Assembly: GCA_045660965.1 (NCBI GenBank)
Contig: JAZRES010000004.1
Location: forward strand, 6,396 to 70,395
DNA length: 64,000 bases
Source: Acutalibacteraceae bacterium
Lineage (GTDB): Bacteria > Bacillota > Clostridia > Oscillospirales > Acutalibacteraceae
Direction: 5' to 3'
Shown: positions 31,441 to 64,000 of the stretch, one piece after another
Position numbering within the stretch: the stretch's first letter is position 1
How the letters are laid out: every line of letters begins with the position of its first letter
Notes under the pieces: generated by a model
What the model was told of the DNA's origin: nothing
Databases searched by the model: none
The model's input: the letters and a program-made list of their open reading frames with translations, nothing else
Program-made: the position numbers and the translations under genes

Positions 31441-31455
31441 GAGAGGTGATGAAGA

Positions 31456-32442: not shown

Positions 32443-32483
32443 TTGTATTGGTTTTTAAAATAAACATATAAGGAGTAATTATT

Positions 32484-33470: not shown

Positions 33471-33478
33471 TTTGCATT

Positions 33479-33510
33479 AAAAATGCCCCTGCTTCGGCAG
33501 GGGCATTTTT
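33479..33510 (+). terminator. Rho-independent terminator ending the GH2-ABC-GH130 operon
   Basis: aaaaatgcccctgc-ttcg-gcaggggcattttt. Confidence 0.88.
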
Positions 33511-33625
33511 GCATCCATTTTACGGAAATCGTGATATTTTACTATGACAAGGGTGGATTTTATAATGAAAACCCCCGATTCTTGCGGTATAATGATTCTA
33601 ATTACAAAGCAAGGAGGAACTCACA

Positions 33626-34354
33626 ATGATTTTCTTTTATGTTCGCCATGGTGACCCGATCTACAACCCCGACAGCCTGACCCCCTTGGGTGAGCGCCAG
33701 GCAGAGGCGGTGGCCAAGCGTCTGTGTATGCACGGCGTTAATAAGGTGTATGCTTCCACCTCCAATCGGGCGATTTTGACCGGTAAGCCCACCTGCGACA
33801 TTATGGGCAAAGAGCCGAAATTGTTGGAGTTCTGTAATGAGGCCAATATCGCCAAAGATTTTATGATAGGGGAGTGGCCTCATCCCGATCAGGACTGGGC
33901 CTGGAACCACAAGGACACCCGTAAATTGTTGCTGGACCCCGAGGTGGTGGCTATGGGGCACGACTGGTACAAGCACCCCAAACTGGCAGAATACACCTTC
34001 GAGCACGGCGTACAGGCTATGTACGAGGGCGTGGACGAGCTCTTTGCCGAATTGGGCTATGAGCACGACCGCTATACCGGTATTTACAAGCCGACACGGG
34101 ATAACGACGACCGTGTGGCGCTATTTGCCCACCAGGGCTGCAGCACCGTGTTTATGAGCTGTCTGCTGGATATCCCGTACCCCATTTTTGCCACTCGTTT
34201 CGATATGTGCCACAGCGCCTTTACCGCCATCGATTTCCACCCTGACCGCTATGGCAACGTGGTTCCTCGTGTAATGTCCCTGTCCAACGATTCCCACCTG
34301 TATCGTGAGGGCTTGCCTCTGCGCTACAACCACAACGATCGTTGCCGATTCTAA
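33626..34354 (+). CDS. Histidine phosphatase superfamily protein, paralog B
   Basis: FFYVRHGDPIYNPDSLTPLGERQA and LFAHQG. Paralog of 17258-17953, in the opposite orientation. Confidence 0.85.
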   Translation: MIFFYVRHGDPIYNPDSLTPLGERQAEAVAKRLCMHGVNKVYASTSNRAILTGKPTCDIMGKEPKLLEFCNEANIAKDFMIGEWPHPDQDWAWNHKDTRKLLLDPEVVAMGHDWYKHPKLAEYTFEHGVQAMYEGVDELFAELGYEHDRYTGIYKPTRDNDDRVALFAHQGCSTVFMSCLLDIPYPIFATRFDMCHSAFTAIDFHPDRYGNVVPRVMSLSNDSHLYREGLPLRYNHNDRCRF

Positions 34355-34397: not shown

Positions 34398-34680
34398 TTT
34401 CCGAGATGGTTTTTATATAAAATACAGAAATTTCAAAAAAACTTCATCATTTTTCAACTTTTTATATAAAAAAGGATTGCATTTTACAAAATCATTTGGT
34501 ATGATAACAATGTGTTGTATTATGGGCTGATAGAATACCCACATATCTGTGTTATCAAATCACGATACAACAGATACCGAGCTTTTGCCGCGGAAAAGGG
34601 CAAAAATCCCATAAGACAGCGGATGGCGCCTGCGGGTGGCCACCGCAAAAAATATCTTTTTGAGAGGAAGCGTGAAACAC

Positions 34681-36324: not shown

Positions 36325-36344
36325 TTGAGAGGAGGAACTGAATT

Positions 36345-43767: not shown

Positions 43768-43782
43768 GGAGGTGGAGAGAAT

Positions 43783-48701: not shown

Positions 48702-49619
48702 TCAAACAAATTCATAAGATTCGGCAATTTCGGTAATGGTACCCACACCAAGGGTTTGCACCTTGTTTTGGCTCTGGTACTCTTTCGGGGTGATACCGTA
48801 TTTCTTGCGGAATACCGAAATGAAATAGGAAGCCGCCGAAAAACCGGATTGTGCCGAGATGGTCTCGATATTCAGGTTGGGATTCTCCAACAGTTTGGTG
48901 GCGTATTGCAACCGCAGATCGGCAATCATCTGCATACAGGTGGTGCCGGTAGACTGTTTAAACAGTAGCGCCAGGTGGTTGGGGGATACGTGGGCCTTTT
49001 CGCCCAGTTCCTGCATGGTAATCTTCTTGCGGAAGTTGTAGAAGATGTATTGCAGGGTCTGATGCACCACCGGATTGGTGGCGGTATAGGCGGGCATTAG
49101 GGTATCTTCTTGGGGGCTCTCGCGGATGATATGTAGGCACAGATAGGAGAGCATCAATTGAATGCTTAGGCTCTGGGTATTGTTTACCTCAAAGCAGTGG
49201 AGCAGTTCGTTTAGCTGGGTTAATAACCGATCAAAATCGTTCTCATTCAGTTTTACCGAATGTACGTGGTTGTGCTGGAGCAACAGATCCCGCACCTCGC
49301 CGAAAATGGCCTGTTCATCAAACCGCAGATGCACTACGTGTAGATCGGTGCCGGGGTCGGGGATAAGGGCGTGGATGTCCATAGGCGTCAGCAGATAGGC
49401 ACAGCCTACCGATAGGGGATAGTTGGTGCCGTTATACTGGTGGATACCGGTACCGCTGAGCACGATCTCTACCTCAAAATAGTCGTGCCAATGCAGTTCG
49501 CGGCTGTTCCATTGGCTGTTGACAATACGCTCGTCAATGGCTAGAAAAAAAGGGCTCTGCATCCGGTACATATACCGCTGATCTGCAGAGATAAAACGAG
49601 AGGGGATGCTTGCGTTCAT
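48702..49619 (-). CDS. AraC-family transcriptional regulator (cupin sensor + HTH), AraC-1
   Basis: The C-terminus ISAQSGFSAASYFISVFRKKYGITPKEYQ is the AraC HTH. The N-terminal region is cupin-like. The start is set at MNASIPS because GGAGG lies 6 nt upstream. The ORF-track start is 49631. Confidence 0.85.
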   Translation of the reverse strand: MNASIPSRFISADQRYMYRMQSPFFLAIDERIVNSQWNSRELHWHDYFEVEIVLSGTGIHQYNGTNYPLSVGCAYLLTPMDIHALIPDPGTDLHVVHLRFDEQAIFGEVRDLLLQHNHVHSVKLNENDFDRLLTQLNELLHCFEVNNTQSLSIQLMLSYLCLHIIRESPQEDTLMPAYTATNPVVHQTLQYIFYNFRKKITMQELGEKAHVSPNHLALLFKQSTGTTCMQMIADLRLQYATKLLENPNLNIETISAQSGFSAASYFISVFRKKYGITPKEYQSQNKVQTLGVGTITEIAESYEFV

Positions 49620-49740
49620 AGTTACCTCCATAGGGTGACAAAAGCAAAACTCTATCTGAAGATATATCCCATTATATACATTTTTCTACGAAAATCAAGA
49701 GTTTTTGTTATCAAAATGCTAGTTTTTACCGAAAAATGAT

Positions 49741-49785
49741 AAAAAATGAAAACCCCTGCAACGGAATTTCCGTTGCAGGGGTGTT
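49741..49785 (-). terminator. Rho-independent terminator of giant paralog P1
   Basis: The minus strand reads cccctgcaacgg-aaatt-ccgttgcagggg followed by a T-rich tract (ttttcatttttt). Confidence 0.85.
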
Positions 49786-49812: not shown

Positions 49813-52800
49813 TTAGTCCTCGTACTTACGGTCGTCGGTGGCAGTAACCACACGATAGGACTCGTATACGGTGGGGTCAGCTTCCATGATATCGCCACGT
49901 TCGGTGTTCTTAACACCGGCAGCCTTCAGGGCGTGGATGCCGTTCTCATCGTAACGACCGATGATGACAGAGCCATCCTTCTGAATGCGGAAGACGGTCA
50001 TGGTCAGCGCACCGTCAGCGCCACCGGTGGTGGAGCCGTAGTAGCCGATATAACCAGCGGTCATATAGGTGAAGTTCAGGGTGACAGCTTCGGGAGTGGT
50101 GTAGTCGATGTAGCTGGGCACCAGCATAGTGTCGCCCTTCTTCAGATAGACAGAACCACCGCCGATGTAGTTATCGTAACCGCCGGAGTGGTTATGGCCG
50201 AACAGGAAGATGATGTTCAGACCGGCAGCACCGGCCTCATTCAGAGCCTCCACGATGGGCATAGCGGTACGGGCATTCTGACCGGATACGGTACGCATAG
50301 AGAAGTTCAGCGGCACGTGGCAGACCACGAAGATGGGCTTGTTGCCCCAACCGCCGTTGATCTTAGCGTCGAAGTAGTTGGTCAGTTCCTTGGCTACGTT
50401 CTCGCCGCCGGCACCGGTATCGGCGTAGTTATCCTCGTTGATGAGGAACAGGCCGTAGGGAGCGCCGAAGGGATCGTTGTTGCCGTGCTGGGTCAGACCC
50501 ACGGTAGCCTCGGGATCGTGGTTACCCTGAGAATAGAACTTGTTGTTGTACACAACCTTAGAGATCTCCTCGTCCAGACCGGCCAGACCTTCAGAGGTCA
50601 GATCGGCAGTAGTGCCGCCGGAATAGTCACCGCCGGACATAAAGCCGTCGAACAGACCATAGCCGGCGTCTGCCATAGCGCCCAAGATGTTGCTTACGGT
50701 GCGACGACCGGCAGCCACGTCGTTGTTCTTGGGCTGGAAGTCGGAACCTGCCAGCAGAACAACCTCGGACAGGTCAGCAATCGCATAGGGATCGTACATA
50801 GCGTGAGCTACGGAACGAGCGATGTCGTAATAGTCGTTGGCAACCTCAGCGGGGTAATAGTCGGCCTGATCCAGGGTCTCGCCGGTGATGGCAGCAAACC
50901 AAGCCAGCATATTGATATACCCCTTGATGCTGTCGTTTGCAGCAACGCCAGTACCGATAAAGTTCTGGGTAGCGGTATAGGAGTAGATGGCCTCGGCATT
51001 GTTCAGAGTGGTCTGGGCCATATCCTCGTCGTTATCCCAGAAGAGAACGGCATCATTGGTGGCAGCATCCACTTCATTGATATAGGCCTGATCCTCGGAA
51101 TCAACGATTACGTAATCCCAATCCTCAGCCAGTGCAGACTGGGCATCGGCGTTGGTCCACTCGCCATACTGATAGCGGGCATAGTCGTCGCCAGACAGGC
51201 TACCCAGTACTACGTTATCGTAGTCGGCACTCTCCAGAATGCCGGCCAGGTAAGCCTGCATAGCATCGGCAGAGCTGTCGTCGCCAATAGCCAGAACGCT
51301 AATGGCCTTGTGCTCGCCGGTAACGCCAGCGTAGTTGTTGTGAGCCAGAGCACCGTACACCACAATCTCCTCGCCATTTACGTCATAGACGTAATAGGGG
51401 CGGGCATAGATCTCGGTACCGGTCTTGTCCTCGGGGATGTTGACGATACGCACGGCATAGCCGAAGGAATTGCCCTCCAGATCGATCAGGTACTGGGCGT
51501 TGACGTCAATCACAGAGGTGCCGTTAACGGCATCCAGAGTGAAGGTATCGTAGTTGGCGCCGATGTCAGCCTTGTTGGTGACCACAGCACCCATACGCAC
51601 CAGAGCGCCGATGGCCTGACGGTTCTTGTACAGGTCAATGGTACCGGTGCCGGGCACATACTGGTTGTGCTTTATAACCTGTACGCCGTTGGCAGCCACA
51701 GTGAAGCGGAAAGCCAGACCACGGTTGTTGTCAGCCACGTCACGGACGCTGACACCGGTGTTCTTGGTGTTCTCCTTGCGGATGTTCTCTTCACCGTTTA
51801 CGTTGACGATGGAGACGTTATCGATGTACATCTCGTCGGCAGAGGAATTACCGCTACCGCAGAAGTTCAGGGTGACCTTGGTGGTGTAGCCCACGTTAAA
51901 GGTCTTCTCATACAGCATCCAGTCGGTACCCTTGCTGGTGCTCAGATATTCGCTGGTGATCTTACTGCTGTCGGCAGCATTCAGAATCTGCATGTTGATA
52001 CCGTTAGAGATAGGCTTGTACCAGAAGCTTACCTTATAGGTGTTGCCCATATCCACGTTGAAGGTCTGGTTGATGGTACCACCCCAACCGGTGCCCTTCA
52101 TAACCACGCCGGCAGAGCCTTCATAGGCAGCCTTGGTGGACAGGATGGTCTGCTGGTGGGTGTTCCAATTGACGGTGGTGCCGGCCTCAAAGTCGCCGTT
52201 GTAGATATAACCGTCAAAGGAAGAACCCTTGGGAGCAGACAGAACTACGAACATATCGTCAGCATAGACGCTTTCAGCCACGCCGGTACCGCTACCGCAC
52301 ATATTGATGCGGGTGGTGGTGCCCTGGGCCACGAACTTCAGCTGGACAACGCTCCAGCCGGTCTTGCTGAAATAGGTGGAGATCAGCTTGTTGCCGGAGG
52401 CCTGATCCAGAATTTGGATGTTGGCGCCGGCAGCATTGGCCTTGAAGAAGCCGTAGAAGTAATAGTTCTCACCGGGTACGGTGGTGATGTCCTGATAGGC
52501 AAAACCGCCCCAACCGCCGTTACCGGACAGGTGCAGGCCATACTCGCCGTTGCAGGCAGCAGCATCAGAGACCTCGGTGGTCTGGGAGATGTTCCAGGGA
52601 GAAGCCTTACCGGTCTCCAGGTCACCATTGTACAGATAACCATCAAAGGCAGGCTCTTTCAGCTCTTCCACAGTGATATCATCGATGAGGATGGTGCCGG
52701 CGTTGGCAGCCTCAGAGGTGAACTTGATCAGCATCTGAGAGTTGTCACCGGAGTTGTACACGCAGGTGTTCTTTACCCAGCCCTTGTCGGCGGATTTGTT

Positions 52801-54090
52801 CATCCAGTTTTCACCGGACAGACGCTCAAAGTTGGTCCAGGGAGAAGTGGTCTGGCACACAATCAGGTTGAAGGCGCCGGTGCCGGATACACGCTTGGAC
52901 CACCAGGAAATCTCATACTGAGTGTTGGGCTTTACGCCGATGGTGCGCACAGCAGCCTCGCCCCAAGCGGAGGGATTGGACAGCTGCAGAGCATAGTTGC
53001 CGCTATGGGCGTCGGTGACAATGGCAGAGGTACCGCTGTTGCAGGACCAGCCGGTCTTGTCACCGGTCTCAAAGTCACCGTTGGTGAGCAGAGGAGCTTT
53101 GATGACGACGATGTCGTCCACGTAGACATCTTCGGCAACGCCGTTACCACCGCCGCAGAAGTTCAGGAAGAGGGCGTTGGTGGTGGGGGTGACGGAGTAG
53201 GTCAGATAGGTCCACTCGGTCTTGGTGAACCAGGTGCCGCCCAGCTTAGTGCCGTTGGTGTTGCCGTCCTTAATCTGGACATTAACGCCGTTGGAAACAG
53301 CCTTAATCCACATAGATACCTGATAGCTCTGATCGGCGGTAACCGGTACAGTCTGGTTCAGCATACCGCCCCAGCCGCCGTTACCCTTCAGGTTGATACC
53401 GTAGTAGCCGGTATAGGCAGCGTCGGCAGAGATGGCAGAGGACTGATGAACTTCCCAACCGGTCTTGTTACCGGTCTCAAAGTTGCCGTTCTCCACCAGG
53501 TTACCCTTTACCTCGGGTACGGGGTTGGCGGGCTGATCGGGCAATACTTCGGGCTCGGGACCTACAAAAGAGAAATCGTCGAAGTAGTAGGTGCCACCGT
53601 CGCTGGCGGTGCGGTTCTGCATCACCAGGGTCAAGGTGGTGTAGTCACCGGAGTTGACGGTGTAGGACACCTTAGTCCAGGCGCTACCAGAAGGAGATAC
53701 ACGACTGTAGTCGTCGTTCAGAGTAACGCTCTCGTTACCATCTTTCACAATTGCGTAGAAAGAGGGGCTGCTGTTAGAGCCAGCATATTTGTACCAGAAG
53801 GTGATGACGTAATCCGTGTTGGCCTTCACGTCGAAGGTCTGACGCATCATCAGCTGATACTTGGTGCTGGTGTTGGCGGTCTTGATGGCATAGCTACCGC
53901 CATGTTTTTCGGACGAGGTAACAGACGTACCGCTTTCCAGCTTCCATCCGTTACCGTTGCCGGTCTCAAAGTTACCGTTCTGCAGCAGATCTACGTTTGC
54001 GGCAGAAACCAGAGAACTCAGAGGCAGCAGGGTGCACAGCATGGCCACGGTCAGGACCACAGCCAATACTTTGCGCAGGTTGTTTTGCAT
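49813..54090 (-). CDS. Giant secreted protein P1: 5 CBM4_9-like modules + YARPYY module + degenerate DUF4886/SGNH-like region + C-terminal metallophosphoesterase domain
   Basis: Signal peptide MQNNLRKVLAVVLTVAMLCTLLPLSSLVSA. Module starts: DLLQNGNFETGNGNGW, NLVENGNFETGNKTGW, PLLTNGDFETGDKTGW, GYLYNGDLETGKASPW, GYIYNGDFEAGTTVNW. Then RGLAFRF...IYARPYYVYD, then AIGDDSS. MPE motifs: GSDFQ, GGDYS, GNHD, CHVPL, GHNHSG. Confidence 0.85.
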   Translation of the reverse strand: MQNNLRKVLAVVLTVAMLCTLLPLSSLVSAANVDLLQNGNFETGNGNGWKLESGTSVTSSEKHGGSYAIKTANTSTKYQLMMRQTFDVKANTDYVITFWYKYAGSNSSPSFYAIVKDGNESVTLNDDYSRVSPSGSAWTKVSYTVNSGDYTTLTLVMQNRTASDGGTYYFDDFSFVGPEPEVLPDQPANPVPEVKGNLVENGNFETGNKTGWEVHQSSAISADAAYTGYYGINLKGNGGWGGMLNQTVPVTADQSYQVSMWIKAVSNGVNVQIKDGNTNGTKLGGTWFTKTEWTYLTYSVTPTTNALFLNFCGGGNGVAEDVYVDDIVVIKAPLLTNGDFETGDKTGWSCNSGTSAIVTDAHSGNYALQLSNPSAWGEAAVRTIGVKPNTQYEISWWSKRVSGTGAFNLIVCQTTSPWTNFERLSGENWMNKSADKGWVKNTCVYNSGDNSQMLIKFTSEAANAGTILIDDITVEELKEPAFDGYLYNGDLETGKASPWNISQTTEVSDAAACNGEYGLHLSGNGGWGGFAYQDITTVPGENYYFYGFFKANAAGANIQILDQASGNKLISTYFSKTGWSVVQLKFVAQGTTTRINMCGSGTGVAESVYADDMFVVLSAPKGSSFDGYIYNGDFEAGTTVNWNTHQQTILSTKAAYEGSAGVVMKGTGWGGTINQTFNVDMGNTYKVSFWYKPISNGINMQILNAADSSKITSEYLSTSKGTDWMLYEKTFNVGYTTKVTLNFCGSGNSSADEMYIDNVSIVNVNGEENIRKENTKNTGVSVRDVADNNRGLAFRFTVAANGVQVIKHNQYVPGTGTIDLYKNRQAIGALVRMGAVVTNKADIGANYDTFTLDAVNGTSVIDVNAQYLIDLEGNSFGYAVRIVNIPEDKTGTEIYARPYYVYDVNGEEIVVYGALAHNNYAGVTGEHKAISVLAIGDDSSADAMQAYLAGILESADYDNVVLGSLSGDDYARYQYGEWTNADAQSALAEDWDYVIVDSEDQAYINEVDAATNDAVLFWDNDEDMAQTTLNNAEAIYSYTATQNFIGTGVAANDSIKGYINMLAWFAAITGETLDQADYYPAEVANDYYDIARSVAHAMYDPYAIADLSEVVLLAGSDFQPKNNDVAAGRRTVSNILGAMADAGYGLFDGFMSGGDYSGGTTADLTSEGLAGLDEEISKVVYNNKFYSQGNHDPEATVGLTQHGNNDPFGAPYGLFLINEDNYADTGAGGENVAKELTNYFDAKINGGWGNKPIFVVCHVPLNFSMRTVSGQNARTAMPIVEALNEAGAAGLNIIFLFGHNHSGGYDNYIGGGSVYLKKGDTMLVPSYIDYTTPEAVTLNFTYMTAGYIGYYGSTTGGADGALTMTVFRIQKDGSVIIGRYDENGIHALKAAGVKNTERGDIMEADPTVYESYRVVTATDDRKYED

Positions 54091-54137
54091 AGTGTTTTCC
54101 TCCTTTTATTAAAATTTTATGCAATTTGCCACCTTTG

Positions 54138-54166
54138 AGTATAGCAAAAAGACACCCAAAAAGCAA
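54138..54166 (-). promoter_or_regulatory. Candidate sigma-A promoter of P1
   Basis: The minus strand reads TTGCTT-17 nt-TATACT, ~45 bp upstream of the P1 ATG and downstream of the P2 terminator. Confidence 0.45.
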
Positions 54167-54219
54167 GTAGCTATATAGTAATGGATAGTATTTTAATACC
54201 TATATATAGAAAAATACCG

Positions 54220-54260
54220 AAAAAAGCCCCCTGCAACAGAATTGCCTGTTGCAGGGGGCT
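54220..54260 (-). terminator. Rho-independent terminator of giant paralog P2
   Basis: The minus strand reads gccccctgcaacag-gcaatt-ctgttgcagggggc followed by TTTTTT. Confidence 0.85.
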
Positions 54261-54291
54261 TAGGGTTAGCTATAAAGTGAAATCACTTTAC

Positions 54292-57200
54292 TTAGTCCTC
54301 GTACTCCTCGTCTTTATAGGCGCCAACAATACGAGAGGACTCGTATACGCGGCCATCGGCTTCGGTGTACTCGGTGTAGTCACGATCGTAGGGGGACAGA
54401 GCACCGGCACTCTTCAGGTTATGCTCGCCGTTCTTGTCATAACGGGTGACAATGACGTCGCCATTCTCCTGAATGCGGAAGGTACACATGGTCAGAGAGG
54501 TGTCAGCACCCTCGCCCATATCGTTGTAGTAAGCAACGTAACCGCAGTTCATATAGGTGAACTTCAGTTCGGTCTCGATGGGGGCATTCTTGTAGTTAGC
54601 GACATCGGGAACCAGGATGGATTCTCCCTTGGGAATGTAGATAGCGGCACCGCCCAGATAATCGTCATAACCGCCGGAGTGGTTGTGAGAGATCAGGAAG
54701 AAGATGTTCAGGCCGGCCTCGCTGGCACTGTTCAGCGCATCGATGATGTAGGCAGCAGACTTAGCACCGCCGTCCTTCATGGTACGATAGTTGTAGTGCA
54801 GGGGCAGGTGGCTGACCACGAAGATGGGCTTGTTGCCCCAGCCATTAGCCAGCTTCTCGTTGAAGTAGGCGGTCAGGTCGGCAGCAACCTGCTGACCACT
54901 ACCACCATAGGCGTTGTAGTTATCCTCGTGTACCAGGAACACGCCATAGGGAGCGCCCTTGGGATCGTTATTGCCGTAGGGATCCAGCAGATCGATACCG
55001 GCAGCGTCGTGGTTACCCTGGGCATAGTGTCTGTCGAAGTTGACGGACTTGCTGATCTCGTTCTCAAGGACGTGCAGACCCTCGTTACTGGAGTCGAAGT
55101 CACTACCCAGAGCCTGAGTATAGTCACCACCAAACAGCAGACCATCGAAGGAGCTGTAGCCACTGTTGGCCTTCACAGAATTGGTCAGGCCCTGCAGGGT
55201 TTCGATACCCTTTTCCCAAGTGTTGGGCTGGAAGTCGGAACCGGACAGCAGTACGGTCTCGGTCAGGTCATAGACCTTGTTGGGGTTAGCATACGCACGT
55301 GCGGCGGCACGATACATATTGTAGTTGTCGCTGTCGCTGAAGTTGGCATTATAGTCGACCAGTTCCAGGCTCTCGCCGCCGGACAGGGACAGGAACCAGG
55401 TCAGAGCGGCGGTGTACTCATCCTGCTCATCGCTGGCATCCAGAACAGTATCCAGGTTAGCCAGAGCGGTATCCACGGCCACGTCGTCGCCGTAGTACAG
55501 CACCTGAGCATCAGCGGGCTTGTTGGCGTTGGCCCAAGCCAGGTCGGCATCGTTGGTGACGACGATGTACTGCCAACGCTCGTCGGCCATCAGGTCGGCC
55601 TGAGCGATGGAGCCGGAGACCCACTTGCCGTTGTCGTCGTTCTTCTTATAGGCGCCGTCGTTGTAGCTGCCCAGGATGACCTGGTCATAGTCGGCATCCT
55701 TCAGTACGTCGTACAGATAAGTCTCAAAGCCATCGGTCTCACCAATGGTCAGCACACGCTTGGTGCGGCGGGTGGCCTCAACAGCCAGATAATTGTTGTT
55801 GGCGATGGTACCATAGATGGTGAACTCCTCGCCGTCAACCTCGTAGACGTAGTAGGGACGGGCATAGATTTCGTTGCCCAAGTTTGCATCGGGGATGTTC
55901 AGGATACGCACAGCAAAGCTGAGAGCATCGTCATCCAGAGACAGCAGGTACTTGGCGTTAACGTCGATGACGTTGGAGCCGTTGACGCTATCCAACTTAA
56001 AGGCGTCGGCGTCGGTACCCACAGCGGCCAGGTTGGTGACCACAGCACCGAAGCGCTTCAGGTTACCAATGACCTCAGCGTACTTGTACAGCTTCAGGTT
56101 ACCGGTGCCGGCTACGTACTGGTTGCCATTCTCGATCTGGATGTTGGTAGCCAGCATATCGAAGCCGAAAGCCAGAGCGGGCAGATCGTTCTCGTCGCGG
56201 ATAGAAGCACCCTTGGGGGTGGTGATCTCGACACGATCCATCTCGCTACCGGACAGGTTGACCAGACGGACGTCGTCAATCAGAACCTCGTCATTGGTAC
56301 CGTTCTGTTTGCCGGAACCGGAGAAGGTCATCTCGATTTCGGTGGCGGTACCGGCCTCGAAGGTTACCTCGTGGTAGGTCCACTGGGCAACCTTGTTGGA
56401 ATCCATATACAGGCTGTCGAAGCTGACGCTCTCATCGGTGGTGCGCAGCTTGTAGTTGACACCGTTGGAAACGGGCAGATACCAGAAGGACAGGGTATAG
56501 GTCTTACCGGCCTCCAGGGTGATGGTCTGATACAGCAGATGACCGCCCCAGTCGCCAACGCCCTTAACAGAGGCAGAATAGATGCCGGTGTGAGCTTCAT
56601 TGGAGATGGAGGACAGAGAGCTGTTGTTCTTCTGCCATTTGCCGAAGACGCCGGTCTCGAAGTCGCCGTTGTAGATGTAGCCGTCGAAGGAGGGATCCTT
56701 CAGAGCTACCAGACGAAGGTCATCGATGGTGGCGGCACCGTTGCCGGACTCCTGACCCATAAAGCCCAGGTACAGGGAGCTGTTGTCGCCGGAGTTGAAG
56801 GTATAGGTAATCTGAGTCCAAGTAGAACCGGCAGAAATGCTTCTCTGAGCATAGTTCTGATCGGTAACACCGGTCTTCAGAATCAGGGTGATGTCGGTGG
56901 TGTCCTTAGCCCACAGGGTCAGCTCATAGTCGGTGTTGGGCTCAACAGTGATCTTCTGGCGAACCTGGTTCCAGGTGCCGGCCTTGATGCTCAGGGCCTG
57001 AGAACTGTTGTGACCCTCTACCAGAGAGACGGTACAGGCGTTGTTGGTGTTGATCCAGTGGGTGGACCAGTCACGATACTCAAAGTCACCGTTGATGATA
57101 TAACCATCGGAAGAAGCAGACTTCTGCTCCACCAGAGTGATGGAGTCGATGTATACATCCTCAGCCAGGCTGGCATTGGCAGAGCCACTACCGCCGATAC

Positions 57201-59265
57201 CGCTGAAGTTCAGCTTGATGGCGGAGTCACCGTTGGAGGTGACGGTGGTGGTGTACTGGGTCCAAGTGCCGGTGGGGGACTTGATGGACTTGTTCTGATA
57301 CATGGTGCCGGACTGTACGCCCTGCAGCTGCAGGGTGAAGCCGTTGGCGTTAATCTTGTACCAGAAAGACAGCTCATAGGTCTTGCCGTTCTTGACGGCC
57401 ATATTCTGGTTCAGCATACCGCCCCAAGAGCCGTTACCCTTCAGGTTAACGCCGTAGTTGCCTTCATAGGCAGCGTTGGCGGAGATGGTGGTGGACTGCC
57501 ACTTCTCCCAGCTGGACAGGTCGCCGGCCTCAAAGTCGCCGTTGCTGATCAGAGGAGCTTCGGTGACGGAGACGTCATCGATATAGGCAACCTCATACTC
57601 GCCGTTACCGGCGCCGCAGATGTTGATGAACAGAGCGTTGGTGGTGGGGGATACCACGAAACTAATCTGAGTCCAGTCAGCATAGCTGGAAGCGGAACAC
57701 CACTTGCCGGCAAGAGAGGCGCCGGAATCGTTGGTCTCTTTGACCTGGATGTTGACGCCTACGCTCTTGACCTTCAGCCACATCGTAACCACGTAAGACT
57801 TGCCGATAACGGCGTCAACGGTGGTGTACAGCAGAGAGCCATAGGAGCCCTTGCCGGACAGGTAAGCACCATAGTTACCGGTCTTGGCAGCCTCGGTGTT
57901 TACGGTAGTAGACTGGTTGGCGTGCCAGCCGGTGGTATCACCGGTCTCGAAGGTGCCGTTAATGACCAGGTTGCCGGACACAACGGGAGCATCGGGATTG
58001 GCGGGGGTGTCGGGGTTCTCCGGCTCTTCCAGGCCGGGCTCAACAGTACCGTCGGCACGTACCAGATACACATCATCGAAGTAGTACTGACCGGCGTTGG
58101 CACGGTAGTTGGAGAAGGTAATGGTGGTGTTGGAAATATCACCGGAGTTGAAGGGAATCTCCACAGAGCACCATTTGTTACGAGCGCTGGAACTGGTAGC
58201 AGTGAAGCGCACGCGGGTGCTGGAGGAGCTGGACACCGTCTTTACTTCCAGACCGCCGGTGGTGACGTTGGAGGTGCTGTAGGTAACAGCGTTGGTACCC
58301 AGAGTCACCCAGAAACCGGGAGAGGAAGAGGCGGTGGAGTAGACGTAAGTCTTAAACTTCAGAATGTAATCGGTGTTGGGGGACATACTGGCAACGGACT
58401 GATAGAACATCTCGTTGCCGGAACCACCGTCAGAGGTGTTGTTGGCGTCGGTCTTCATCACCAGACCTTGGTTAGAAGAGGTGGGATCGCTCACAACAGA
58501 GGTGGCGATGGTGCTGGAGTTGATCAGGGTCCAGTTGGCACCGCCCTGCTCAAAGTCACCATTCTTCAGCATGTTGTAGCCTTCGGGAGCCAGTTCAGAG
58601 GGCTCGTCGGGAGTCTCAGGCTCGTCGGGCTCAACGGGGGTCTCAGGCTCGTCGCCGCCAACCTTGGTCAGCACCACGTCATCAAAGTAGTAGTAACCCT
58701 GCAGAGTGCGGTAGTTACAGAAGATGATGCGGGAGTTGGTAGCAGAACCGGAGTTGAAGGGGATGGATACGTCCACCCACTTGCCGGTATTGCTGTTGAC
58801 GTTCAGACGAACACGGATGGCAGAGCTACTGTCGATGTTCTGACAACCGAAACCGGTTACGTCGGCGGTGTTGTAGCTCACCTTGTTGCCGGTGTCTTTA
58901 TCATAGAAAGAGATGATAAAGGCGGCGTTGCTGGCGGTGGAGTAGCAGTAGGCCTTAAAGGTCAGCACGTAATCGGTGTTGGCCTCCAAGCCGGGCTGCT
59001 GATAGAACATATCGTCACGGCCGTTAGAGTTGTTATAGGTGGACACGGTGTGCATCACCTTACCCTGACCGGCGCCGGTGGGATCGTCTATCACTTCGGT
59101 GGCGGTGTCATCGTCGTTGATCAAAGTCCAACTGGTAGCACCGTTCTCAAAGTCTCCGTTTGCAATCAGATTATCTGCGGCGAAAACCATCGCAGACAGG
59201 GGCAGTATGCTGCACAGCATCAATACCGACAACAGTACTGCCAAAGCTTTGCGGAATTGCTTCAT
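54292..59265 (-). CDS. Giant secreted protein P2: 6 CBM-like modules (two of a distinct N-terminal class) + YARPYY module + degenerate SGNH-like region + metallophosphoesterase domain
   Basis: Signal peptide MKQFRKALAVLLSVLMLCSILPLSAMVFA. Module starts: NLIANGDFENGATSW, NMLKNGDFEQGGANW, NLVINGTFETGDTTGW, PLISNGDFEAGDLSSW, GYIINGDFEYRDW, GYIYNGDFETGVFGKW. PE-rich linkers. Then PALAFGF...IYARPYYVYEVDGEEFTIYG, then TIGETDG. MPE motifs: GSDFQ, GGDYT, GNHD, SHLPL, SHNHSG. Confidence 0.85.
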   Translation of the reverse strand: MKQFRKALAVLLSVLMLCSILPLSAMVFAADNLIANGDFENGATSWTLINDDDTATEVIDDPTGAGQGKVMHTVSTYNNSNGRDDMFYQQPGLEANTDYVLTFKAYCYSTASNAAFIISFYDKDTGNKVSYNTADVTGFGCQNIDSSSAIRVRLNVNSNTGKWVDVSIPFNSGSATNSRIIFCNYRTLQGYYYFDDVVLTKVGGDEPETPVEPDEPETPDEPSELAPEGYNMLKNGDFEQGGANWTLINSSTIATSVVSDPTSSNQGLVMKTDANNTSDGGSGNEMFYQSVASMSPNTDYILKFKTYVYSTASSSPGFWVTLGTNAVTYSTSNVTTGGLEVKTVSSSSSTRVRFTATSSSARNKWCSVEIPFNSGDISNTTITFSNYRANAGQYYFDDVYLVRADGTVEPGLEEPENPDTPANPDAPVVSGNLVINGTFETGDTTGWHANQSTTVNTEAAKTGNYGAYLSGKGSYGSLLYTTVDAVIGKSYVVTMWLKVKSVGVNIQVKETNDSGASLAGKWCSASSYADWTQISFVVSPTTNALFINICGAGNGEYEVAYIDDVSVTEAPLISNGDFEAGDLSSWEKWQSTTISANAAYEGNYGVNLKGNGSWGGMLNQNMAVKNGKTYELSFWYKINANGFTLQLQGVQSGTMYQNKSIKSPTGTWTQYTTTVTSNGDSAIKLNFSGIGGSGSANASLAEDVYIDSITLVEQKSASSDGYIINGDFEYRDWSTHWINTNNACTVSLVEGHNSSQALSIKAGTWNQVRQKITVEPNTDYELTLWAKDTTDITLILKTGVTDQNYAQRSISAGSTWTQITYTFNSGDNSSLYLGFMGQESGNGAATIDDLRLVALKDPSFDGYIYNGDFETGVFGKWQKNNSSLSSISNEAHTGIYSASVKGVGDWGGHLLYQTITLEAGKTYTLSFWYLPVSNGVNYKLRTTDESVSFDSLYMDSNKVAQWTYHEVTFEAGTATEIEMTFSGSGKQNGTNDEVLIDDVRLVNLSGSEMDRVEITTPKGASIRDENDLPALAFGFDMLATNIQIENGNQYVAGTGNLKLYKYAEVIGNLKRFGAVVTNLAAVGTDADAFKLDSVNGSNVIDVNAKYLLSLDDDALSFAVRILNIPDANLGNEIYARPYYVYEVDGEEFTIYGTIANNNYLAVEATRRTKRVLTIGETDGFETYLYDVLKDADYDQVILGSYNDGAYKKNDDNGKWVSGSIAQADLMADERWQYIVVTNDADLAWANANKPADAQVLYYGDDVAVDTALANLDTVLDASDEQDEYTAALTWFLSLSGGESLELVDYNANFSDSDNYNMYRAAARAYANPNKVYDLTETVLLSGSDFQPNTWEKGIETLQGLTNSVKANSGYSSFDGLLFGGDYTQALGSDFDSSNEGLHVLENEISKSVNFDRHYAQGNHDAAGIDLLDPYGNNDPKGAPYGVFLVHEDNYNAYGGSGQQVAADLTAYFNEKLANGWGNKPIFVVSHLPLHYNYRTMKDGGAKSAAYIIDALNSASEAGLNIFFLISHNHSGGYDDYLGGAAIYIPKGESILVPDVANYKNAPIETELKFTYMNCGYVAYYNDMGEGADTSLTMCTFRIQENGDVIVTRYDKNGEHNLKSAGALSPYDRDYTEYTEADGRVYESSRIVGAYKDEEYED

Positions 59266-59402
59266 GGTCTTTTCCTCCTTTTAATATATGGCGAGCAGAA
59301 TCCCCCTCTGCTCATAAAATAGGCCAATATCATTATATACTATATTTATAACGACAAAAAGATACAAAATAGAGAAAAAGCGGTACAAAACGAAAGTTTT
59401 TC

Positions 59403-59431
59403 ATTGACAAAAGAGGAGTAGCCATATAGTA
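59403..59431 (+). promoter_or_regulatory. Candidate sigma-A promoter of AraC-2, in the divergent region shared with P2
   Basis: TTGACA-17 nt-TAGTAT, ~40 bp upstream of the ATG at 59473. Confidence 0.5.
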
Positions 59432-59472
59432 TGGTAGTATAAAAAGTACCTAATATAAAGGTAGGTGAAAGT

Positions 59473-60327
59473 ATGTACGTGTATCGTGGTGATTTGGGCA
59501 ATTACGTGGATGCCATTGTGGACACCACCACACCGCTGTTGATTACCTCAGCCGGCAATATTCGCCCTCGTAGTGCAGCGAAATTCTATACCACCCGTCC
59601 GGAAGGGCGAGAGGATTATCAGCTCCTTTACGTGGCGGATGGATTCATCCATTTCGAGTTTCACAGTGAGGAGCGGGTGGTGGAAAAAGGCCATCTGGTT
59701 ATGTATTGGCCGGGTGAGAGCCAGTACTATAAAATGTATGCCGCCGACCAGGCAGAATTCTATTGGGTGCACTTCACCGGCTACGACGTAGAGCGCTTGT
59801 TGGCAGAGTGGGGGATACCCCGTGGGCAGAACGTGTTTTGGGTGGGTACCGACTCGGATTATCGGTGGCTGTTCCACCAGATGATTCGGGAATTGCAGTT
59901 ACGCCACAGCAAATACGAAGAGGTCACCCGTATGAATTTGCGCCACCTTTTCCTGCTGATAGAGCGCCATTTGACCGAGTCGGAAGAGGATATCAGCGCC
60001 GATTTCCACGGCGAAATTATCCAGGCCATCACTTGGTTTGACCGCCATTGGCGTGAGCCCATCTCCATCGAGGATTACGCTACCAGAAACCGTATGACCC
60101 CCTGCTGGTTCCGGCAAAAATTTAAGCACCAGACCGGCGTCAGTCCTATGCAATACGTTACCAATCTGCGCATCACCAACGCCATGAATCTCATAGAGAA
60201 TACCGACTATAACATCTCCCAGATTGCTGAGGCGGTAGGGTATGAAAACCCCACCTATTTCCGCCGTTTGTTCCATAAGCACACCGGTATGTCCCCTTCG
60301 GAATATAAGAAGCAAAAACGCAAATAA
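59473..60327 (+). CDS. AraC-family transcriptional regulator (cupin sensor + HTH), AraC-2
   Basis: N-terminal AraC-binding/cupin pattern (REDYQLLYVADGFIHFEF...GHLVMYWPGE). C-terminal HTH ISQIAEAVGYENPTYFRRLFHKHTGMSPSEYKK. Confidence 0.88.
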   Translation: MYVYRGDLGNYVDAIVDTTTPLLITSAGNIRPRSAAKFYTTRPEGREDYQLLYVADGFIHFEFHSEERVVEKGHLVMYWPGESQYYKMYAADQAEFYWVHFTGYDVERLLAEWGIPRGQNVFWVGTDSDYRWLFHQMIRELQLRHSKYEEVTRMNLRHLFLLIERHLTESEEDISADFHGEIIQAITWFDRHWREPISIEDYATRNRMTPCWFRQKFKHQTGVSPMQYVTNLRITNAMNLIENTDYNISQIAEAVGYENPTYFRRLFHKHTGMSPSEYKKQKRK

Positions 60328-60375
60328 AAAAAGAAATCCCCGGCAACGGAAAATCCGTTGCCGGGGATCTTTTTA
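60328..60375. terminator. Bidirectional terminator between AraC-2 (+) and giant paralog P3 (-)
   Basis: aaaaaaagaa-atccccggcaacgga-aaa-tccgttgccggggat-cttttt. Confidence 0.85.
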
Positions 60376-60401
60376 GGTTTTATTTACCGCTTTAACCGGA
60401 A

Positions 60402-63400
60402 TTAGCCGGTGTACTCCTCATCGGTAGTAGCGGTAACAATGCGCTGGGGACCGTAAACGGTCTCGTTTACGGGGATGTAGTCGATATACTCGTTGGGGTT
60501 GTGAGCCTGACCCTTAGCCTTCAGGTTGTGGTAGCCATCCTTGTCGTAACGAGTGATGATGACAGAACCATCCGCCTGAATCTTAAAGGTGGTCATGGTC
60601 AGAGTCCAGTCGGGACCCTGCTCTACGTGATAGCCAACGTAACCGGAGTTCATATAGGTGAACTTCAGCTCGACTTCCTGATACTCCTTGTAGTTCTCAG
60701 GCTTAGCGATCAGCATGGTGTCGCCCTTAGCCAGGTAGATAGAACCACCGCCCAGGTAAGAGTCATAGTCACCGGAGTGGTTATGACCGAACAGGAAGAT
60801 AACGTTAAAGCCGTTCTCGCCACCGTAGTTCAGAGCCTCTACAATACCCTGAGCGTTCTTACCAGCGCCGTAGTCGCTGATGGTACGCCAGTTGAAGTGT
60901 AGCGGCACGTGAGTCAGCACGAAGATGGGCTTGTTACGATTCCAGTTGTTCTCGATTTTCTCGTTGAAGTAAGCCATCAGGTCGGCAGCGGGATCGTTGG
61001 CACTGGTGCCACCGAACTGACCGTAGTCTTCCTCATGGATAACGAAGGCGCCATAGGTGCCGCCCACGGGATCGTTGTTGCCATAGGGGCTCAACTTCTC
61101 AACGGTGGGAGCGTCGTGGTTACCCTCAGAGAAGACCTTGTTACCGATGATGAAGCCGTTGGTGAAGTTATCCAGCTCGGCAATACCCTCGGTAGCGTTG
61201 TCGTGACCGTGGTTGGGAGTGTAGTCACCGGTGAACAGCAGACCATCGAACAGCTCATAGCCGTCGGTATTCTTGATACCGCCCAGGATGCTGTTGATGT
61301 TGTTGAAGTTCTTCTCCCAGGTGCTGGCCTGGAAGTCGGTACCGGCCAACAGGATGGTATCACCCATGTTGGAGATCTCATAGGGGTTGATGATGGCACG
61401 GCCAACAGCACGCTTGATGTTGAATACATCGTTGGTGACAGAGGCGGGAGCATAATCAACCAGATCCAGGCTCTCACCGGTGATGGCAGCGTACCAGGTC
61501 AGAGAGGCGGTATAATCGCCGTGCTGATCGTTCAGGTGGTAGCCGTCAGCGGTCAGAGTGTCGCCCAGAGCGGTCTGACGCAGGTTCTGGATAGCAGTAC
61601 CGGCGGGGATGACACCGTCGATGCCCTCTACGTTCAGAACAGTGCCCTGAACAGCGTTCACGATGGCATTGTACATAGTCATCTGATCGCTACCGTAGTT
61701 GGGGAATGCCTCGTGGGTGCTATCCTGCTGATAGGCCCAAGTCATATGCCACATAACCTTGGCATCGGGGTTGGTCTTGTACTGGTTGACCCAGTCAACG
61801 ATATTCTGCAGGTTGCCGAAGGTCTCGGGCTGGCCGGAGTTGGAGGAAACCTGCTGCACGGTGATGACATCCCAGTTCTCATCCTGCAGAGCGGTCAGAG
61901 CCTGAGTGCCGTAGGTGGTCTCCCACTTACCGTTGTCCTCGTTCTTGTGATACTCATAAGAACCGGACTTGTTGCTGATGTAGCCCCAGTGCTGGTCCAG
62001 AGAGCAACCGCCGACGTACAGGTTACCCAGGATGACCTGGTCGTAGTCAGCGCTCTTCAGAACGTCGTACAGATAGTTGCGCATAGCGTCAACAGAGAAG
62101 GAGTTGCCGATGGCCAGAACCTTCAGAGAGCGGCGTACGCTGGCAACAGCGTCGTAGCTCTCGTTGGCGGTCTCACCGTAAATGGTAACTTCCTCGCCGT
62201 TGATCTCGTAGGTGTAGTAGGGACGAGTGTAGATCTCGTCAGCGGTATGACCGTCGGGGATGTTGACGATACGGATGGCATAGAACATGTCACCGTTATC
62301 CTCGTAGTCGGTCATATACTTGGCAGCAACCTTGATAACGTTAGTGCCGTTGACGTCAGCCAGGGTCATATCGCCGGAGCCGATAGCAGCCTGGTTGGTA
62401 ACGACAGCGCCGGACTCGATCAGAGTACCGATAGCGTCGTCGTAGTTGAACAGCTTCATGGTACCGGTACCGGAGATGTACTGGTTGCCGTTCTCGAACT
62501 GAGCGCCGATAACATTGGTGGCAAAGCGGAAGGCCAGACCACGGTTGTCGTCGCTGACGTCACGGATGGAGGTGCCGGAGTTCTTCAGAATCTCGCAACG
62601 GTCCATCTCGTCGCCGGACAGGCACTCGATCTTGATGTCGTCGATCCACAGCTCGTCGACAGCGCTGGGATTGCTCTCAGCCTTACCGGAGCCGGAGAAG
62701 TTCAGGATCAGCTTGGTAACGTAGCCGGACTCGAAGGTGGCCTCGTACAGAGTCCAATCCTGCTTACCGCTCAGATAGTTACCGGCCAGCTTGGTGTTCT
62801 GGTTGTCCTGATCCTTCAGGGTCATGTTCAGACCGTTCTTGGGGGTCTTGTACCAGAAGGACAGCTTGTAGGTCTTACCAACCTCAACAGCGATGTCTCT
62901 CTGGGTCAGCAGGCCGCCCCAGTTAGCGGTACCCTTCAGGATAGCGCCGTACTTGCCGTTCTTGGCGGCGGTGGCGGACAGAGCGGTCTCTTTGTTGGTC
63001 TCCCAACGGGTCATGGAGCCGGCCTCGAAGTCGCCGTTCCAGATATAGCCGTCGAAGGAGGGATCCTTAACCTCAACAACCTTGAAGTCGTCGAAGTAAA
63101 CCTTATCGGTTACGTTGTTACCGCTACCGCAGATGTTGATCTTGGCAGTGGTGCCGGTGGCGGTAAACTCCAGGGTGTGAGTAGCCCAAGAGGTGCCGCT
63201 TACATACTTGCTGGCTAGGGTGGCGCCATCCTGCTTGATCTGTACGTTTACACCGCTGGAAACAGCCTTGTAGCTGAAGGAAACGGCATAACGATGGCCA
63301 GCCTCGGTAGCGAAGTCCTGATAGGCCAGACCGGGATAGCCGGAGCCGTTACCGGTAGCTACCAGACCATACTTGCCGGCGTTAGCAGCCTCTTTGGCTA

Positions 63401-64000
63401 CAGTAGTCTGCAGGTAAGAGGTCCAGCCGGAGAGCTCGCCGGTCTCGAAGTCGCCGTTCTTGATGAAGCCATCGTCAGAAGCGATCTTCTCGCCAACCAG
63501 CTTGATGTCGTCGATCAGGACGTCCTCAGCCACGCCGTTACCGCCGCCGCAGAAGTTGAAGCAGATGGTGTTGGTGGTGGGGGTCACGTCCCAGGACAGC
63601 TGAGTCCACTCGGTAGCGGTGAACCACTTGCTGGCCAGGTTGGCGCCGGAGGTGCCGCCGTCCTTAATCTGGACGTTGACGCCGTTCTGGTTGGTCTTCA
63701 GCCACAGGCTGACGGTATAGGTCTGGCCGGCCACAACAGTGACGTTCTGGTCCAGCATACCGCCCCAACCGCCGGTACCCTTTACGTTAACAGCATAGGA
63801 ACCGCTGTGAGCGTTGGTGGAGATGACGGTGGACTGGTGCTTGTTCCAGCCGTTCAGGTTGCCCAGCTCGAAGTCGCCGTTGTTCACCAGGTTATCATCT
63901 TCCTCAACCTCGGGCAGGATGATCTTAGCAATGTACAGGTCGTCAACCCAAACGTCCTGGGCAACGCCGGTATCCTGGAACTTAAAGCGCATCTTGCCTT
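60402..64000 (-). CDS. Giant secreted protein P3 (5' end beyond the window): >=4 CBM4_9-like modules + YARPYY-type module + intact-looking DUF4886/SGNH domain + metallophosphoesterase domain
   Basis: Module starts: NLVNNGDFELGNLNGW, GFIKNGDFETGELSGW, GYIWNGDFEAGSMTRW. Then RGLAFRF...IYTRPYYTYEINGEEVTIYG. SGNH blocks AIGNSFS and ADGYHLND. MPE motifs: GTDFQ, TGDYT, GNHD, THVPL, GHNHSG. The reading frame is still open at 64000. Confidence 0.85.
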   Translation of the reverse strand, partial: GKMRFKFQDTGVAQDVWVDDLYIAKIILPEVEEDDNLVNNGDFELGNLNGWNKHQSTVISTNAHSGSYAVNVKGTGGWGGMLDQNVTVVAGQTYTVSLWLKTNQNGVNVQIKDGGTSGANLASKWFTATEWTQLSWDVTPTTNTICFNFCGGGNGVAEDVLIDDIKLVGEKIASDDGFIKNGDFETGELSGWTSYLQTTVAKEAANAGKYGLVATGNGSGYPGLAYQDFATEAGHRYAVSFSYKAVSSGVNVQIKQDGATLASKYVSGTSWATHTLEFTATGTTAKINICGSGNNVTDKVYFDDFKVVEVKDPSFDGYIWNGDFEAGSMTRWETNKETALSATAAKNGKYGAILKGTANWGGLLTQRDIAVEVGKTYKLSFWYKTPKNGLNMTLKDQDNQNTKLAGNYLSGKQDWTLYEATFESGYVTKLILNFSGSGKAESNPSAVDELWIDDIKIECLSGDEMDRCEILKNSGTSIRDVSDDNRGLAFRFATNVIGAQFENGNQYISGTGTMKLFNYDDAIGTLIESGAVVTNQAAIGSGDMTLADVNGTNVIKVAAKYMTDYEDNGDMFYAIRIVNIPDGHTADEIYTRPYYTYEINGEEVTIYGETANESYDAVASVRRSLKVLAIGNSFSVDAMRNYLYDVLKSADYDQVILGNLYVGGCSLDQHWGYISNKSGSYEYHKNEDNGKWETTYGTQALTALQDENWDVITVQQVSSNSGQPETFGNLQNIVDWVNQYKTNPDAKVMWHMTWAYQQDSTHEAFPNYGSDQMTMYNAIVNAVQGTVLNVEGIDGVIPAGTAIQNLRQTALGDTLTADGYHLNDQHGDYTASLTWYAAITGESLDLVDYAPASVTNDVFNIKRAVGRAIINPYEISNMGDTILLAGTDFQASTWEKNFNNINSILGGIKNTDGYELFDGLLFTGDYTPNHGHDNATEGIAELDNFTNGFIIGNKVFSEGNHDAPTVEKLSPYGNNDPVGGTYGAFVIHEEDYGQFGGTSANDPAADLMAYFNEKIENNWNRNKPIFVLTHVPLHFNWRTISDYGAGKNAQGIVEALNYGGENGFNVIFLFGHNHSGDYDSYLGGGSIYLAKGDTMLIAKPENYKEYQEVELKFTYMNSGYVGYHVEQGPDWTLTMTTFKIQADGSVIITRYDKDGYHNLKAKGQAHNPNEYIDYIPVNETVYGPQRIVTATTDEEYTG

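Follow-up and report, generated by a model that had tools for sequence, protein, structure and literature searches.

Three consecutive giant genes on the minus strand of a 64,000-nucleotide stretch from an Acutalibacteraceae bacterium (GenBank assembly GCA_045660965.1, contig JAZRES010000004.1, positions 6,396 to 70,395) raise the question of what kind of protein joins a carbohydrate-binding array to an esterase-like and a phosphoesterase domain, and on what such a protein would act. The whole stretch is referred to as the window, and coordinates are those of the window unless a locus number is given. The list of open reading frames (ORFs) and the domain scan place gene 1 at 49813–54090 (1425 amino acids) and gene 2 at 54292–59265 (1657 amino acids). 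Gene 3 extends from 60402 to beyond 64000; its reading frame is still open at base 64000, the window edge, with the 5′ end outside the window and at least 1198 amino acids visible. The initial annotation had described a single part order for all three genes, and ORFs, Pfam matches, hidden Markov models (HMMs) and motifs all bore this out: an array of CBM_4_9 carbohydrate-binding modules (CBMs), a module designated X135, a DUF4886/SGNH region and a C-terminal metallophosphoesterase (MPE). On balance, the products are best explained as secreted phosphoesterases tethered to a glycan, gene 3 carrying a deacylase as well.

Domain composition of the three giants

The C-terminal ~700 amino acids (X135, DUF4886 and MPE together) of genes 1 and 2 are 47% identical to those of gene 3. 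Sec-type signal peptides, which had been assigned to each protein, are visible at the N-termini of genes 1 and 2; the N-terminus of gene 3 lies outside the window, and its orthologs begin with the same signal peptide (MQxKLRKVLA...MLCTLLPLG...A).

The MPE occupies residues 1110–1425 of gene 1 (49816–50763), residues 1337–1657 of gene 2 (54295–55257) and positions 60405–61358 in gene 3, on the minus strand in each case. The calcineurin-type motifs that had been reported for the last ~300 residues are all present in the last ~320 residues of the three proteins (G[ST]DFQ, GDY, GNHD, H[VL]PL and [GS]HNHSG), with motif V reading SHNH in gene 2. An AlphaFold (AF2) model of the domain, generated from an alignment of 58 homologs, had a predicted local distance difference test score (pLDDT) of 93.3 and a predicted template-modelling score of 0.93. 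In a Foldseek search of the PDB with this model, the top 44 matches were all of the MPE fold, 27 of them with E ≤ 1e-3, which agrees with the fold expected from the motifs. The matches included Lmo2642 (2xmo, 3.5e-8), the kidney-bean and lupin purple acid phosphatases, SMPDL3A/B, GpdQ, Rv0805, Mre11/SbcD, LpxH and PhoD. All were remote, with template-modelling scores of ~0.5 and 10–14% identity, and a profile of the family searched against the PDB sequences gave nothing below E = 0.1. The Pfam calcineurin-like family (PF00149) was detected in gene 3 (26.3 bits, cutoff 21.5) and was not reported for genes 1 and 2 at E ≤ 0.01.

Ten residues are invariant in the 58 family members (D17, Q19, G53, D54, G88, N89, H90, H159, H201 and H203) and two more, Y55 and D91, are nearly so. 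The canonical metal ligands of MPEs are all kept except the His of motif I, which reads D-x-Q and not D-x-H: the Asp is retained, with an invariant Gln in place of the His, in 58 of 58 members and in all three genes. Like other members of the calcineurin-like superfamily, the domain has an alpha-beta-beta-alpha sandwich and motifs II–V (GD, GNHD, H and GHxH) at normal spacing; it differs in the D-x-Q motif I, in the near-invariant Tyr directly after the motif II Asp and in an extension of the core by about 120 C-terminal beta-rich residues. The model indicates that the C-terminal domain is an MPE fold of a previously undescribed subfamily. Membership of the purple acid phosphatases was considered and rejected on motif spacing, as in those enzymes the Tyr ligand lies three residues after the bridging Asp, whereas here the Tyr of GDY is adjacent to it and motif I reads SDFQ; the likeness is at the level of the fold only (4dhl, 12% identity).

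A DUF4886/SGNH-like region had been proposed for each protein. This holds in full for gene 3, where the domain is intact (61359–62126, minus strand; PF16227, 1.1e-82), while genes 1 and 2 contain decayed relics. A sequence search with the C-terminal 585 amino acids of gene 3 aligned the domain with PDB entry 4i8i (BACUNI_01406) over 253 residues (2.4e-52); no other part of the query gave a match. The catalytic blocks tabulated for 4I8I are GNSFS, IGGCSL, QQASPL and D-x-YHLD (PMC10792757), and gene 3 has all four (GNSFS, VGGCSL, QQVSSN and DGYHLN), with the nucleophile Ser in block I, the GGC of block II, and the Asp and His of block V. It differs from 4i8i in its setting, between X135 and the MPE of a secreted protein of more than 1,400 amino acids. 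The relics, of ~170–180 amino acids, lie on the minus strand at residues ~930–1109 of gene 1 (50764–51303) and ~1169–1336 of gene 2 (55258–55761). Both have internal deletions of roughly 75–90 residues and lack blocks II and V, and their block I has become GDDSS (gene 1) or GE---T (gene 2). The Pfam scan gave a sub-threshold DUF4886 match of 34 residues in gene 1 (20.5 bits, cutoff 26.7) and no DUF4886 match in gene 2. DUF4886 is listed without known activity (PMC9487903). Judged by these residues, the combination of an esterase with a phosphoesterase would apply to gene 3 only.

The N-terminal arrays match Pfam CBM_4_9 (PF02018) with E-values of 3.7e-48, 1.6e-51 and 1.8e-40 and whole-protein scores of 163.8, 174.7 and 138.9 bits for genes 1, 2 and 3, respectively (cutoff 25.9). 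The five, six and at least four modules initially counted were resolved by an iterated HMM as five in gene 1 (residues 34–761, 51808–53991), six in gene 2 (residues 32–1001, 56263–59172), with a divergent and longer first pair, and in gene 3 three complete modules and the end of one more (62628–63893), all on the minus strand. A search of NCBIfam gave only NTTRR-F1 and choice-of-anchor-C matches in the CBM region and nothing in the catalytic part of the giants.

The module between the array and the SGNH region, first noted as ~135 residues with the motif IY[AT]RPYY, is present in all three genes. X135 comprises ~140 amino acids with the motif EIY[AT]RPYY (gene 1, residues 775–916, 51343–51768; gene 2, residues 1015–1155, 55801–56223; gene 3, 62166–62588; all minus strand). 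An AlphaFold model with a pLDDT of 80, built on just five sequences, shows an all-beta sandwich; a structure search with it found no PDB match at E ≤ 1e-3, and the module has no Pfam family. A word-indexed protein search gave one match, apparently a chimera. X135 also ends two other CBM proteins in the window, at 36345–38573 (residues 582–724) and 12140–14695 (residues 698–839). In related genomes, where L-numbers denote loci retained from a scan of GTDB species genomes and P-numbers denote matches from protein-database searches, it forms the N-terminal half of secreted proteins of ~300 amino acids (L012, 16685–17632 and 18711–19622; L017, 9041–10021; several in L013) and is placed after stand-alone MPEs in L035 and L052. 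P0066 (226 amino acids), with half an X135 module and TPR repeats, looks chimeric and is not taken as a real architecture. The most fitting description of X135 is an accessory module specific to this lineage, where it serves as a free-standing building block.

Conservation of the architecture in gut Clostridia

The order CBMxN-X135-DUF4886-MPE recurs in 19 contig stretches (L001–L019) from 13 metagenome-assembled genomes (MAGs) assigned to Acutalibacteraceae, Oscillospiraceae or Clostridia, as tandem arrays with two to five members, some truncated at contig ends. It is not peculiar to this genome but a conserved feature of a lineage of gut Clostridia. The MPE subfamily is small: only 65 relatives were found in the word-indexed search of 5.8 billion proteins, 513 (E ≤ 1e-30) and 1247 (E ≤ 1e-3) in an exhaustive HMM search of 1.84 billion cluster representatives, and 270 stretches of the GTDB species genomes encode the family, the best match being 82% identical, so that the genome of the window is not itself in the scanned set. 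All 74 retained loci are from MAGs (Acutalibacteraceae, Oscillospiraceae, Clostridia and a few others), and most of these MAGs are, by their record titles, from ruminant and other herbivore guts.

Alignment of 48 X135-containing ORFs separated five paralog classes that are orthologous across genomes. Class A, the gene 3 type, has intact SGNH blocks, as does class B, in which the MPE starts LGLSDFQ and which was not seen in the visible part of the window. The remaining three are relic classes: C, the gene 2 type, with TIGET; D, the gene 1 type, with GDDSS; and E, with MVGDAATYG. The metal-ligand motifs are intact in all of the 40 MPE-bearing giants among these ORFs. Identity between orthologs over DUF4886 or its relic is 77–88% in the gene 3 class, 48–80% in the gene 1 class and 42–64% in the gene 2 class; over the MPE the corresponding values are 74–81%, 76–87% and 68–71%, which makes the MPE the most conserved region in the gene 1 and gene 2 classes. 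Since the relic classes are orthologous across genomes, the decay of the SGNH region is old and retained and not a recent pseudogenisation, and the identities of relic and MPE in each class fit this view.

Two sibling paralogs in L002 (2301–6233 and 2–2032) have the order CBMx4-X135-DUF4886-DUF4886, in which two SGNH domains with Ser-bearing block I motifs (GNSFS/GHSFS) replace DUF4886-MPE. The catalytic part at the C-terminus can thus be swapped.

Stand-alone proteins make up most of the MPE subfamily, with a signal peptide, the MPE, a Thr-rich stalk and a C-terminal transmembrane anchor. Others carry dockerin, SLH or InlB-B-repeat domains, or are the N-terminal heads of Ig-like or VWA proteins of 2000–3300 amino acids, and the subfamily is nearly always displayed outside the cell. 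Several of the stand-alone members have a type I dockerin, and cohesin and dockerin modules occur in this lineage (L019, 11024–12208; L021; L039; P0041; P0061); in some gut Clostridia the phosphoesterase may be a cellulosome component. P0011 (311 amino acids), which combines a Bacteroides-like GH2 N-terminus with the C-terminal half of an MPE, looks chimeric and is not regarded as a real architecture.

Exact copies of genes 1 and 2 are present in a public protein collection. Public names of the relatives are only 'DUF4886 domain-containing protein' or 'carbohydrate binding domain-containing protein', the MPE having been missed. Literature searches on MPEs with CBM, dockerin or teichoic acid, and on the function of DUF4886, found no relevant protein. 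The earlier statement that no characterised protein has this architecture is upheld, in that no characterised homolog was found in the PDB, among public names or in the literature.

Flanking genes and coding strand

As first proposed, each giant has its own terminator, a strong hairpin with a T-run after the stop codon on the minus strand: 49752–49782 for gene 1 (14-bp stem), 54224–54261 for gene 2 (17-bp stem) and 60334–60370 for gene 3 (17-bp stem). The three stems share the sequence CCCC[TG]GCAAC[GA]G, which is found nowhere else in the window at ≤1 mismatch, so that the 3′ flanks were apparently duplicated along with the genes. The third hairpin scores as a terminator on the plus strand too, and may serve both gene 3 and a convergent gene for an AraC-family regulator (59473–60327, plus strand). 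This regulator, with cupin-type AraC_binding and HTH_18 domains, is encoded divergently from gene 2, and a second AraC-family gene (48702–49631, minus strand) lies immediately downstream of gene 1. In several of the related clusters a gene of 282–288 amino acids on the opposite strand lies within or beside the array, as in the window, and all four such neighbours that were scanned (L005, L010, L012 and L018) are AraC-family. AraC regulators are the only recurrent element in the neighbourhoods of the giants in relatives, and no substrate could be inferred from these. The other neighbours are variable and include WYL regulators, a cohesin-dockerin protein, BspA-LRR, NrdD, Glf, DUF4422 and LytR_CpsA_Psr. 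An Rfam search of the whole window detected two tRNAs only (6941–7014 and 7082–7154, plus strand), with no riboswitch or leader upstream of genes 1–3.

On the other side of the second AraC gene, 43783–48585 (plus strand) encodes a protein of 1600 amino acids with 8–9 CBM_4_9-like modules, a (TEAP)n/Thr/Pro-rich linker and a C-terminal transmembrane anchor. Counterparts adjoin the clusters in L005 and L018 as CBM-only ORFs of 1425–1426 amino acids that are cut by the locus end. This protein may be a surface scaffold or binding partner for the secreted giants.

Among the carbohydrate genes of the window are GH2, GH130 and DUF5696 genes, a pair of ABC sugar systems and a number of CBM proteins of no assigned catalytic type. 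The upstream block 18302–34354 contains a GH2 beta-galactosidase, a solute-binding protein of 971 amino acids, two ABC permease pairs, an NHL/TPR/Yip1 membrane protein, DUF5696, GH130 (mannoside phosphorylase family) and two His_Phos_1 phosphatase/mutase genes. The GH130 gene, 16 kb from gene 1, hints at mannoside use. Four plus-strand genes (41698–43767, 34636–36324, 14809–16203 and 10162–12126) encode secreted proteins that have no Pfam catalytic domain, some ending in a CBM, and may represent undescribed glycoside hydrolase families; one of them, of 689 amino acids, has VELENE and ATEFG motifs that, on inspection, are reminiscent of clan GH-A (GH5-like). Sequence searches of the PDB gave nothing useful for 41698–43767, no match for 34636–36324 and a weak solute-binding-protein match only for 40054–41607. 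Spo0A is also encoded in the window and, together with the relatives of the giants, puts the organism in the same Clostridia lineage.

Each giant is overlain by a long plus-strand ORF: 49933–54138 over gene 1 (1401 amino acids), 54181–59322 over gene 2 (1713 amino acids, longer than the gene 2 product) and 60909–63218 over gene 3 (769 amino acids). These were rejected as genes and are regarded as shadows of codon bias. Their translations are Gly/Val/Leu-rich low-complexity strings, and a codon log-odds gene caller trained on the window chooses the minus-strand genes, with scores from 904 to 1152. The codons TTA, CTA and TCA, the reverse complements of stop codons, are absent from gene 1 (0 of 1426 codons) and gene 2 (0 of 1658), and for this reason the codon-aligned antisense frame is open in both. 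Across the window TCA accounts for 13 of the 1260 Ser codons. Further long shadow ORFs on the minus strand (44191–47562, 41749–43956, 21195–24227 and 36321–38435) result from the almost complete avoidance of the same three codons in the carbohydrate locus, where shadow ORFs overlie most of the large genes. Automatic ORF callers could choose the wrong strand in this locus. The domain-library scan covered the minus-strand products only, and all domain matches given here are from these products.

Candidate functions and known precedents

The products of genes 1–3 would be Sec-secreted modular enzymes in which the CBM4/9-type array and X135 probably anchor the catalytic cassette at the C-terminus to the surface of a polysaccharide. 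Its constant element would be a binuclear-metal phosphoesterase (D-x-Q, GDY, GNHD, H and GHxH) whose target is a phosphomonoester or phosphodiester carried by the bound glycan or lying beside it. In gene 3, and in two paralog classes of the relatives, the DUF4886 SGNH esterase would in addition remove an acyl group such as O-acetyl, the SGNH remnant of genes 1 and 2 being kept only as a scaffold. Tandem duplication gave rise to the genes, and their control probably lies with the interleaved, putatively sugar-sensing AraC regulators. The inference of catalytic activity is supported by the unvarying metal-ligand motifs and by sequence conservation, which is highest in the MPE. The association with SGNH, the DUF4886-DUF4886 sibling, the sugar-type AraC regulators and the carbohydrate-rich window all fit the removal of non-sugar decorations from a glycan.

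Several observations weigh against this explanation. The replacement of the motif I His by Gln extends throughout the family and, from the motif itself, would leave the metal content, and even activity, at the stage of prediction. The substrates of the closest structural relatives are nucleotides, lipids or small phosphoesters rather than glycans. CBMs are absent from most of the MPE subfamily, whose members are displayed on generic anchors, so that a glycan need not take part in the chemistry at all, which weakens the glycan-specific part of the argument. CBM_4_9-like modules are also found on many proteins of this organism, including the pure array with a transmembrane anchor, and could be spacers or binders of its own wall and not of a substrate. 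As for the teichoic-acid-like, phosphomannan or capsular phosphoglycan substrates suggested in the initial annotation, direct support was not obtained, AraC regulators being all that the neighbourhoods in relatives share.

Nucleic acid or nucleotides, the other target considered at the outset, gain from the predominance of anchors without CBMs. The enzymes could serve in scavenging of phosphorus or nucleosides, the MPE being an ecto-nuclease, nucleotidase or cyclic-nucleotide phosphodiesterase which the CBM array does no more than fix to plant fibre or the matrix of a biofilm. Among its structural neighbours are two cyclic-nucleotide phosphodiesterases (Lmo2642 and Rv0805), SMPDL3A, which hydrolyses nucleotides, and the nuclease Mre11. 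The surface-anchored MPEs known from Gram-positive bacteria are nucleotidases of the CdnP, AdsA and SntA types, and the display of the subfamily on many kinds of surface anchor, irrespective of CBMs, would suit a general ecto-enzyme. However, the likeness to nucleotide enzymes is confined to the fold (10–14% identity), and the Pfam scan of the three proteins detected neither a 5′-nucleotidase C-terminal domain nor a nucleic-acid-binding module. The flanking regulators are of the AraC sugar type, and no pst or other phosphate-uptake gene was seen among the annotated genes of the window, a survey of genes and not of regulator binding sites. The SGNH fusion and the DUF4886-DUF4886 sibling are better accommodated by the stripping of glycan decorations, and we consider scavenging rather unlikely.

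Remodelling of the cell's own envelope is quite improbable. The CBM-like modules would in that case bind the secondary cell-wall polysaccharide of the organism, and the enzymes would cleave phosphodiester-linked wall polymers or lipid-linked intermediates, for turnover or release and not for foraging. In 12 loci (L020, L024, L025, L027, L031, L034, L036, L037, L038, L040, L044 and L046) stand-alone transmembrane-anchored MPEs, often in tandem pairs, are directly followed by a GtrB/CsbB-like family 2 glycosyltransferase (GT2) of ~320 amino acids with C-terminal transmembrane helices. A TraB/GumN-family gene sometimes lies between the two. The giants of some relatives are near the Glf, DUF4422 and LytR_CpsA_Psr genes, and an MPE of Bacillus subtilis, UpsH, releases undecaprenyl phosphate from wall-teichoic-acid intermediates (PMC11898649). 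UpsH belongs to COG1408, however, and its authors propose that it acts at the cytoplasmic face (PMC11898649); UpsH/YpbG was rejected as a close model on the grounds of this proposed location and the different family. The MPE-GT2 synteny is confined to one clade of close relatives with near-identical GT2 sequences (E ~1e-200), so that the 12 loci are not independent evidence, and it concerns stand-alone paralogs that are only ~40% identical to the MPE of the giants. The giants themselves have no membrane or wall anchor and their neighbourhoods vary.

A non-catalytic adhesin or scaffold, in which the MPE and the SGNH relic had lost enzymatic function and act as binding modules, would account for the motif I substitution in the whole family, for SGNH decay in two of the three genes and for the adhesin-like look of the many members that head long Ig-like or VWA stalk proteins, but it is highly improbable given that inactive MPE folds such as Vps29 and the polymerase B-subunits have lost their metal-ligand residues, whereas here the other ligands and GNHD are invariant in the 58 members and intact in all 40 giants, and the MPE is the best-conserved part of the gene 1 and gene 2 classes.

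For glycan-tethered phosphoesterases, the explanation preferred here, there are precedents in design. The glucan phosphatases laforin, SEX4 and LSF2 combine a CBM with a phosphatase and dephosphorylate glycogen or starch. The design is the same, CBMs bringing a phosphoesterase to a phosphorylated glycan, and the resemblance is one of analogy only, not homology: the glucan phosphatases are intracellular or plastidial, with CBM20/48 and a dual-specificity protein tyrosine phosphatase fold containing Cx5R, whereas the giants would be secreted binuclear MPEs with CBM4/9. The Pfam scan of the three proteins detected no dual-specificity or protein tyrosine phosphatase domain. The pneumococcal phosphocholine esterase Pce/CbpE joins an array of binding repeats to a phosphodiesterase of the metallo-beta-lactamase fold, and PhoD and GlpQ of B. 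subtilis act on teichoic acid, GlpQ having the GDPD fold. BT3783 is the sugar phosphatase of the yeast-mannan polysaccharide utilisation locus of Bacteroides thetaiotaomicron (PMC4978465); its EEP/Tdp2-like fold differs from the MPE of the giants and the parallel is again analogy only. BT3783, Pce, PhoD and GlpQ are precedents for dedicated phosphoesterases in the breakdown of glycans or wall polymers, but none has a CBM4/9 array or an SGNH partner, and no sequence relationship to the giants was detected.

A bolder proposal, which we regard as doubtful at present, is that the giants are the first carbohydrate-targeted MPE family and found a new class of 'glycan phosphoesterases', with which Clostridia of the herbivore gut use the MPE together with the DUF4886 deacylase to strip phosphate or phosphodiester decorations from polymers that would otherwise resist attack, among them phosphomannan, teichoic-acid-like polymers, capsular phosphoglycans or phosphorylated plant glycans. 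The D-x-Q/GDY site might then reflect an unusual metal centre. If true, this would provide the first function for DUF4886 and a class comparable in rank to a new carbohydrate-esterase-type family; if the substrate is nucleic acid or nucleotides, the giants would be more ordinary, fibre-tethered ecto-phosphodiesterases.

Modular CBM-bearing secreted enzymes and the MPE superfamily are both known kinds; what is new is their joining in an uncharacterised architecture. The giants give a handle on two families to which no function has been assigned, DUF4886 and the D-x-Q MPE subfamily with its roughly 500 clusters. Glycoside hydrolases are blocked by phosphate and acyl decorations, and the few enzymes that take phosphate off glycans have unrelated folds. 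As a multi-copy family conserved in Clostridia of the ruminant gut, the giants are a concrete candidate, open to testing, for a step that is missing from the breakdown of phosphorylated glycans.

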